Both the position numbers and the translations under genes were made by a program. The notes under the pieces are model-generated. The model saw nothing but the letters and a program-made list of their open reading frames with translations. It had not been told where the DNA came from and did not search any database. This document shows, one piece after another, positions 804-1,941 of a stretch of 4,411 nt of DNA (its first letter is position 1; each line of letters opens with the position of its first letter). The DNA is taken from assembly GCF_003334385.1 (NCBI RefSeq), contig NZ_QOWN01000086.1; one strand, 5' to 3'. The DNA is from Escherichia coli. GTDB taxonomy: Bacteria > Pseudomonadota > Gammaproteobacteria > Enterobacterales > Enterobacteriaceae.

Positions 804-1787
804 TCAGGACCAGCTCTGCCAGACGGTAGCCCGCTTCAGCCCCGTAAAACGCATCTTACTCCCGCACAGCACGCACTTCAGCGGGTCAATCTTCAGTAAC
901 CTCTGGTACATCTCTCTCCAGGTTATTTGCATCGCCGTTTTTCTCACTGTCTCCGTTATGATGTACACCACTTCTTCCAGTAACCGCCGTTTCGCCGGAC
1001 TCAAAAAACCGTAGTACCTCACCATACGGAACTCCTTATCCGCCACATGCCAGGAAAACCTTTCCATGAACTCATCTCCACTCATCAACAGGTATTCTTC
1101 CCGTTTTGTACGGTGACTGTTATAACGCAGACCGATTTCATCCTGACCGGCATAATGCTCCAGACGACTCATCGGCACCGGTGGCTTTTTCAGGTAAGAG
1201 CCAAAGTACACCGCCACATGGGTGGCATTATCCATCACCCGGGATACGTTGACATTCCAGCCACGGCGGTAATGCGTGTCCAGGAAGCTATTCCATTCCC
1301 GTTTACTGCTTCCTTCTGCTGCCAGCGCATCCGGCATCACCAAGTCAGGGGATTTCCGTGACAGCAACCGTGTTATCCGGTAGCGCCACATGCTCATCAC
1401 CTTACGGGCGTAAAAATGAAGGTTTTTCCTGGTGTAGCCCGATGTCACACCACCGGCAGTTGTCGATAAATGGATATGCGGATGCCACTGCTGGTCACAC
1501 CCCCATGTGTGGATCACCGTGAATATCCCCAGCTCCACATCTGCCTGACGGCAGATTTCCAGAATCACATCCGCTGCAATGCGGCTCATATCTGCCAGTA
1601 ACCACCGGTTGCAGAACACCAGGGACCAGTACTGGCAGGGAAGTGTGAACACAATATGCTGCCACGGGCAGTCGGGGACCAGACTCAGCAGATACTGTAT
1701 CCACTGTGCCCCCACTTTCACTCCGCAGTGCGGACAGGAGCGGCTTTTACACCGGAAGCAGGCTTTTTTTGTGTGGCAACAGTCCAC
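804..1787 (-). CDS. tnpA: IS91-family rolling-circle transposase TnpA (HUH/Y2), main reading frame; GTG is the first possible start and the true N-terminus lies in another frame upstream, so likely a pseudogene
   Basis: 327-aa ORF from the track. Zinc-ribbon CFRCKSRSCPHCG followed by LVPDCPWQHIVFTLP, consistent with the IS91 transposase zinc-binding domain; HUH motif HPHIH at 1470-1484 (verified by reverse-complementing the sequence); paired catalytic tyrosines YFGSY (Y-x3-Y) at 1194-1208; C-terminal CVLCG. The first codon at 1785-1787 is GTG, immediately preceded in frame by a TGA stop at 1806-1808. Confidence 0.85.
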   Translation of the reverse strand: MDCCHTKKACFRCKSRSCPHCGVKVGAQWIQYLLSLVPDCPWQHIVFTLPCQYWSLVFCNRWLLADMSRIAADVILEICRQADVELGIFTVIHTWGCDQQWHPHIHLSTTAGGVTSGYTRKNLHFYARKVMSMWRYRITRLLSRKSPDLVMPDALAAEGSSKREWNSFLDTHYRRGWNVNVSRVMDNATHVAVYFGSYLKKPPVPMSRLEHYAGQDEIGLRYNSHRTKREEYLLMSGDEFMERFSWHVADKEFRMVRYYGFLSPAKRRLLEEVVYIITETVRKTAMQITWREMYQRLLKIDPLKCVLCGSKMRFTGLKRATVWQSWS

Positions 1788-1941
1788 ACCACTGCGTGTA
1801 GCCCATCAGTGTGGTCCCGCAGGCCATGATTTTTGTCACTGATTCAATTACCACTGGACGGACTGAGCCTTCCGGTTGTTTCTCCAGCCAGTTAAGCTAG
1901 CGGTTTCCCTGCTGAAAAATATCGGCAAAACGGGGAAGCAT
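1747..1941 (-). pseudogene. N-terminal segment of the same IS91-family TnpA, separated from the main frame by an in-frame amber codon and a +1 frame change
   Basis: ATG at 1939-1941 (minus) opens MLPRFADIFQQGNR, then TAG (plus 1897-1899), then LNWLEKQPEGSVRPVVIESVTKIMACGTTLMGYTQWCGLLPHKKSLLPV, ending at TAA (plus 1747-1749). The main TnpA frame is offset by +1 and overlaps this frame across an A7 run (plus-strand T7 at 1764-1770). CG-containing residues (MACG, WCG) lie where the first half of the IS91 zinc ribbon is expected. Confidence 0.5.

Follow-up and report, generated by a model that had tools for sequence, protein, structure and literature searches.

Window 579-2380 in a stretch of Escherichia coli DNA (contig NZ_QOWN01000086.1, assembly GCF_003334385.1; the whole stretch analyzed, 4,411 nt, is referred to as the window) carries a transposase gene, tnpA, whose reading frame is interrupted. 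This raises the question of which lesions broke the gene, and what can still be made from it. An initial annotation, drawn up from the letters of the DNA, attributed the inactivation to an in-frame amber codon paired with a frame change, for which a 1-nt indel at a run of seven adenines was thought likely. From alignments with intact relatives and sibling loci, we conclude with high confidence that this segment, on the minus strand, represents a fossil and diverged IS91-like rolling-circle insertion sequence (IS) on an E. coli virulence plasmid, and that its tnpA is broken. The lesions that account for this differ in part from those first proposed.

The tnpA pseudogene occupies 766-1941 (minus strand), from its original ATG at 1939-1941 to its original TGA at 766-768. 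From the ATG, the frame runs into a TAG at 1897-1899 (codon 15) and ends at a TAA at 1747-1749. The body of the protein is found in a mechanically called open reading frame (ORF) of 327 codons at 804-1787, which retains what is left of the zinc domain along with the HUH (HPHIH) and two-tyrosine (Y2; YFGSY) motifs and the C-terminal CxxC. That this body lies in the +1 frame relative to the N-terminus can be read directly off the sequence. The two frames overlap by approximately 60 nt, and the overlap contains the plus-strand T7 (minus-strand A7) at 1764-1770. The ATG, TAG, TAA, T7 and 327-codon ORF had all been placed correctly in the initial annotation, and its assignment of the gene to the IS91 family is borne out: against NF033538, the NCBIfam model of the IS91 family transposase (cut-off 125 bits), the body ORF reaches 244.9 bits. 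This match covers model positions 47-355, and an intact protein matches from position 2.

In order to map the lesions, the window was aligned at the nucleotide level with two related loci, L001 and L002; overall, two intact copies and one copy classed as a pseudogene by PGAP were used, and the N-terminus was compared with five copies. Intact copies include L001 (NZ_CP058715), which encodes the 395-aa protein WP_072855076 with a 115-aa ORF before it, and another with 395 aa, L005. The alignments place the frame change at an 11-bp deletion, with its junction between 1786 and 1785 (minus strand). The lost sequence, TGTTCATCACC, takes with it C53, S54, S55 and two nucleotides of codon 56, such that P56 is partly lost, C41 is split from the rest of the zinc domain, and the body is thrown into the +1 frame. 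This 11-nt gap is the only length difference from the intact copies in the stretch between the deletion and the A run, and it sits 15 nt upstream of A7. The A run itself (1764-1770, minus strand) is not a lesion: its length is that of the intact copies, and AAAAAAAG in the window differs from AAAAAAGG in the intact copies by a substitution that, in the body frame, turns AAG into AAA and leaves the lysine unchanged. Next comes a GTC>GCC change (Val>Ala).

Since the window is as long as the intact copies from 1785 through the A run, an indel at A7 does not account for the frame change. The proposal that it does, forming an inactivating pair with the amber, had points in its favour: the run falls where the two frames overlap, homopolymers are prone to indels, and two truncated relatives, L003 and L004 (see below), have indeed lost 1 nt from A7. 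It is nevertheless extremely improbable for the window, where the sole gap is the 11 nt at 1786|1785, the difference at the run is synonymous, and the frame is restored once the 11 nt are put back. In L003 and L004 the run reads A6G instead of A6GG; the A run is a real indel site in these relatives, not in the window.

A further lesion, which the initial annotation had missed, lies near the 3′ end of the gene. At the G run at 830-832 (minus strand), one nucleotide has been lost, with GGGG or GTGG becoming GGG. The frame shifts after R374 and the last 21 residues, GYRLAELVLIHEPLARMRWCG, are replaced by ATVWQSWS*. The amber and the frame change listed previously are real, and the list was incomplete. 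The uninterrupted transposase frame expected of an autonomous IS is broken by the amber at codon 15, the 11-bp deletion at codons 53-56 and the 1-nt deletion after codon 374. The intact relatives encode the protein in a single continuous frame of 395 codons, not in the two-frame arrangement of the IS3/IS1-style programmed frameshift.

Reverting the three lesions (TAG to TGG, re-insertion of the 11 nt and addition of one G) yields a protein of 395 aa that runs from Met1 to the stop at 766-768, the same stop codon as in the intact proteins, and that is colinear with WP_072855076 and WP_181479316. The repaired TnpA is identical to its nearest intact cluster representative, P0001, at 369 of 395 residues and scores 275.2 bits on NF033538 over model positions 2-355, compared to the cut-off of 125. 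Its Pfam matches are Zn_Tnp_IS91 (PF14319) at residues 17-104 and Y2_Tnp (PF04986) at residues 142-320. The segment upstream of the body belongs to the same protein: the 52 intact N-terminal codons correspond to residues 1-52 of the intact 395-aa proteins, the 64-aa N-terminal reading by itself matches NF033538 positions 2-43, and Zn_Tnp_IS91 extends into it. The intact transposases do not start at the equivalent of position 1787; they include the N-terminal segment. The possibility that the upstream frame is not related to TnpA is ruled out by the matches to intact proteins, NF033538 and Pfam, and by the family alignment.

The family alignment comprises 24 sequences that are 23-93% identical to the repaired TnpA. 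Residues C41, G47, C53, C68, C73, C76, H159, H161, Y253, C360 and C363 are invariant in it, and C58 and Y249 nearly so. The HUH motif (HPHIH, H159/H161) and the two tyrosines (YFGSY, Y249/Y253) are kept in the window gene. The window lineage carries replacements, P141L, R152C and G307E, at sites that are kept in most family members. A sequence search for a solved structure of an IS91-family transposase turned up none.

An N-terminally truncated transposase, initiated at the GTG at 1787 or internally, could in principle still be made from the body, since the 327-codon ORF retains the HUH and Y2 motifs, and products of 327 aa or 303 aa are called by some gene callers in sibling contigs. However, the GTG (1787-1785) exists only through the deletion junction, which supplies GT from its left side and G from its right, and it is preceded by no Shine-Dalgarno-like sequence (ACGCAGTGGT). 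Such a product would be without the 56 N-terminal residues, including the invariant C41, G47 and C53, and its C-terminus would be rewritten. The callers also differ on the start, and no body protein is called in the NCBI assemblies L006, L010 and L011. With C41 and C53 of the zinc domain gone, an active protein started at this GTG, which the initial annotation had left as an option, is very unlikely.

Recoding at A7 would offer another route to a product. In siblings without the amber, a +1 ribosomal slip, or slippage of RNA polymerase with loss of one A, would fuse the 64-codon ORF to the body, so that a nearly complete transposase would be made at a low level through a programmed or tolerated frameshift. 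All eight sibling loci described below have an N-terminal frame without a stop between the ATG and 1747, A7 lies in the overlap, and the shift needed is +1. A possible slippage region is indeed discussed for IS91, but in orf121, the small ORF that precedes tnpA (preprint 10.1101/2025.01.24.634351). The fusion at A7 would read ...QWCGLLPHKKACF..., without the invariant C53 and the near-invariant C58, and the C-terminal frameshift would remain. Furthermore, no other family member is so arranged, the intact copies having one continuous frame, and in the window the amber blocks the fusion. A run of seven adenines is also short for efficient slippage. Given the two missing cysteines, the persisting C-terminal frameshift and the single frame of the intact relatives, we regard rescue by slippage as having only a minimal probability. 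The same low weight, at the level of speculation, is given to two related ideas: that in the amber-free lineage the A7, created by AAG>AAA just downstream of the deletion, acts as a +1 slippage site for partial rescue of the transposase, or that the orf121-like gene is kept as a repressor of incoming IS91.

Thus, we infer that no functional transposase is made and that the copy is non-autonomous, because the frame is broken in three places. This agrees with the earlier view of the element as probably non-autonomous.

To place the lesions in time, we examined eight sibling loci (L006-L013) that were reached through the exact AraC-family protein encoded at 3234-4067 of the window. Four of these are in NCBI E. 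coli assemblies and four in gut-metagenome contigs. Over the IS91 element, all eight align to the window gaplessly at 99.9% identity, and in six this holds for the full window. Both the 11-bp and the G-run deletions are present in every sibling. Given eight gapless independent loci, both deletions are real and inherited, and they are fixed in the plasmid lineage. A sequencing artefact was considered for the two deletions and is ruled out by the eight independent assemblies and metagenomes that carry them. The amber (1897-1899, minus strand; TGG to TAG at Trp15) behaves differently: position 1898 is C in the eight siblings, which read TGG (Trp), and the change is private to the window. The amber is thus real in the window, as first noted, and not a founding lesion. 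It would have arisen late, in this sequence only and after the gene had died, unless it reflects an error. Apart from the amber, single-nucleotide differences between the window and the eight siblings occur only at 2752, 2684, 3314, 3428 and 552; all are outside the IS91 element, and most are in the AT-rich regulator region.

The ratio of nonsynonymous to synonymous substitution rates (dN/dS) was computed pairwise. It is 0.09-0.12 for the repaired gene against intact copies and 0.07 between two intact copies. With dN/dS this low, most of the 10% divergence arose under purifying selection, before inactivation; the inactivation of tnpA itself appears comparatively recent. Drift as a long-standing pseudogene was also considered, and it finds no support in the values of 0.09-0.12. 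In PLSDB, the protein collection and the complete E. coli genomes, no closer intact copy of this isoform was found; the best intact representative is 93% identical at the amino acid level. Some observations weigh against our account of the gene: the last 21 residues are conserved only among close relatives in the 24-member alignment, the amber, seen in one of nine sequences, may be an artefact of sequencing in the source assembly, and the pairwise dN/dS values are rough.

The boundaries of the element are defined by its relatives and by its insertion site. Window 573-2380 is approximately 90% identical in nucleotide sequence, over its whole length, to IS91-family elements on E. coli, Shigella, Salmonella and Klebsiella plasmids; compared to the common intact copies, this isoform is ~90% identical at the nucleotide and 93% at the amino acid level. 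The element, complete but defective, spans 579-2380 (minus strand; 1,802 bp), with its oriIS end at 579 and its terIS end at 2380. Abutting oriIS at 575-578 (plus strand) is a CTTG target tetranucleotide, read off the sequence, and there is no target-site duplication. In the nucleotide alignment this CTTG is CAAG on the IS strand, and the same place reads GAAC in L001 and CAAG in L002. IS91 targets adjoining oriIS are CTTG or GTTC, and no target duplication is made (preprint 10.1101/2025.01.24.634351). When the flanks are joined (...578 to 2381...), they give an open reading, ...AEMMHHLGYEKNQPKPGTNSRNG, and uninterrupted transposase genes of the IS256 family (IS1414-like) match the joined flanks as one piece of DNA in 97 E. 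coli genomes, at ~90% identity. As the joined flanks are contiguous in these 97 genomes, the 1,802-bp element represents a simple insertion that was clean and involved both ends. The split gene is seen as an IS256-family (IS1414-like) transposase gene fragment at ~470-578 and 2381-2436 (plus strand), interrupted by the IS91 copy. An NCBIfam search with the joined IS256 fragment gave no match, and its identity rests on the DNA matches. An Rfam search of the window returned no matches, and a promoter and terminator scan of the element found nothing above shuffled expectation.

The history of the copy may then be put as follows. The element would have entered the IS256-family transposase gene beside CTTG by a normal two-ended insertion of the IS91 type, without target duplication. 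An 11-bp deletion in the N-terminal zinc-binding domain would have taken out an invariant cysteine and shifted the frame, and a 1-nt deletion in the G run would have rewritten the last 21 residues; these two events may have occurred in either order. The TGG>TAG change at codon 15 would have been added later, only in the sampled genome.

Both ends of the element align with the ends of IS91 copies, and they are preserved to different degrees. The oriIS end (579-660, minus strand), which reads ...TTCCTATCGAT on the IS strand and stops at 579, is nearly identical to that of copies with an intact tnpA: over the last 60 nt, the differences are a single substitution and a 1-nt gap. Folding gave no convincing picture of the oriIS palindromes. 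The terIS end (2358-2380, plus strand) has a mismatched subterminal hairpin, GCAGTC-GTCA-GGCTGC, with GCAGTC/GGCTGC in place of the pairing GCAGCC/GGCTGC. Its DNA fold has a free energy of -3.7 kcal/mol (z = 0.2), whereas the L001 and L002 folds reach -8.7 kcal/mol. TTCG takes the place of the canonical and predominant terminal tetranucleotide CTCG, which is the ter cleavage site in IS91 (preprint 10.1101/2025.01.24.634351). Because oriIS and CTTG are intact, mobilization in trans by an intact IS91 is conceivable; given the mutated terIS hairpin and tetranucleotide, we infer that it would probably be inefficient or one-ended, with termination at the precise end expected to be reduced.

Upstream of tnpA, an orf121-like ORF of 115 aa is intact at 1945-2292 (minus strand) and is 93% identical, over 115 of 115 residues, to the ORF of L001. 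An NCBIfam search with its product gave no match. One codon separates its stop, TAA (1945-1947), from the in-frame tnpA ATG (TAA TTC ATG; in L001, TGA TTC ATG). The reference IS91, by comparison, is described as having an overlap of the orf121 stop with the tnpA start, an arrangement conserved in 79% of isoforms (preprint 10.1101/2025.01.24.634351), and the window element would differ in this respect.

The window element shares with the IS91 prototype the architecture of terIS, orf121-like ORF, tnpA and oriIS, the overall nucleotide identity, the closely related orf121-like product, the HUH and two-tyrosine motifs, and the CTTG next to oriIS without target duplication. It departs from IS91 in the 11-bp deletion, the 1-nt deletion and the amber in tnpA, as well as in its altered ter tetranucleotide and mismatched ter hairpin. 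Within the IS91 family orf121 is unique to IS91, and isoforms are defined by at least 95% amino acid identity to the reference TnpA, CAD30457.1 (preprint 10.1101/2025.01.24.634351). The window element has the orf121-type ORF upstream of tnpA that marks IS91 in the strict sense, together with the features of the wider family, namely: matches to NF033538, PF14319 and PF04986, the HUH and tyrosine motifs, and insertion at CTTG without duplication. The 93% identity of the repaired TnpA is below the 95% isoform threshold, although the former is measured against P0001 and the latter is set against CAD30457.1.

The closest DNA relatives in complete plasmids are L003 and L004, which are truncated IS91-like copies beside aap on pO86A1-type plasmids of enteroaggregative E. 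coli (EAEC), with 94.4% identity over window 1206-2193. Like the window copy, they are defective and are located in a virulence-plasmid IS mosaic. Their lesions are independent, namely: a 12-bp in-frame deletion near codon 11 and the 1-nt deletion in the A run (both in L003/L004 2001-2259), and a 3′ truncation. More distantly, IS1294, IS801 and ISCR elements share the PF14319 and PF04986 fold families and the rolling-circle ori/ter logic with the window element, but have no orf121, use other target and ter tetranucleotides, and encode proteins that are at most ~37% identical. The complete E. coli genomes have 3,058 IS91-like places, mostly fragments; 80% or more of the element is present in only 167 records. 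On plasmids, at least 80% of the N-terminal region is covered in 32 of the 1,365 matching records. The window copy is thoroughly familiar in kind: a well-known IS family is represented here by a degenerate copy, in the setting where such elements usually occur.

The findings matter little beyond annotation. This IS91-like copy should be annotated as a pseudogene at 766-1941, not as 303-aa or 327-aa ‘transposases’, and its exact boundaries are now set at 579-2380. Since both deletions run through the whole lineage and the amber marks a single strain, the lesions can be used as markers to track the virulence-plasmid lineage. It should be noted, as a caution, that a frameshift should not be assigned to the nearest homopolymer without an alignment.

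The element is set in a mosaic of IS630, IS256, IS3 and IS66 fragments and ISEc45, located between a chaperone-usher fimbrial operon and an AT-rich gene for an uncharacterised AraC-family regulator. In addition to the split IS256-family gene, the window holds an IS630-family fragment at 1-279 and further IS debris at 2437-2587, 4147-4332 (minus strand) and 4396-4411. The debris includes a C-terminal fragment of an IS3-family OrfB, a C-terminal fragment of an IS66-family protein (model positions 348-385 of 387), and the start of an ISEc45 (IS110-like) transposase gene, apparently inserted into the IS66 element. In sibling L007, window 1-91 is repeated in inverted orientation ~4.5 kb away.

The AraC/XylS-family regulator gene (3234-4067, plus strand) encodes 277 aa at 29% GC and is preceded by a 630-bp intergenic region (2601-3233; 30% GC). 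Among the proteins encoded in PLSDB plasmids, none is more than 45% identical to its product, which also falls far under every NCBIfam cut-off, the best being HilD with 107 bits against 354. The exact protein is present on 155 public contigs, under no name other than ‘helix-turn-helix domain-containing protein [E. coli]’. We read it as a probable, so far uncharacterised virulence regulator of the AggR/Rns class. A literature search for links between IS91 and EAEC plasmids gave nothing specific. In L007, which belongs to the plasmid lineage of the window, a PapD/PapC-type chaperone-usher operon flanks the regulator. Genes for a 122-aa dispersin-like protein, which shares only 43% identity with Aap of pO86A1, and for an FtsX-domain Aat-like transporter lie nearby. 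Together, these L007 genes (2550-6465 and 18943-20834) make up an EAEC-like module of adhesin, dispersin and Aat that has diverged.
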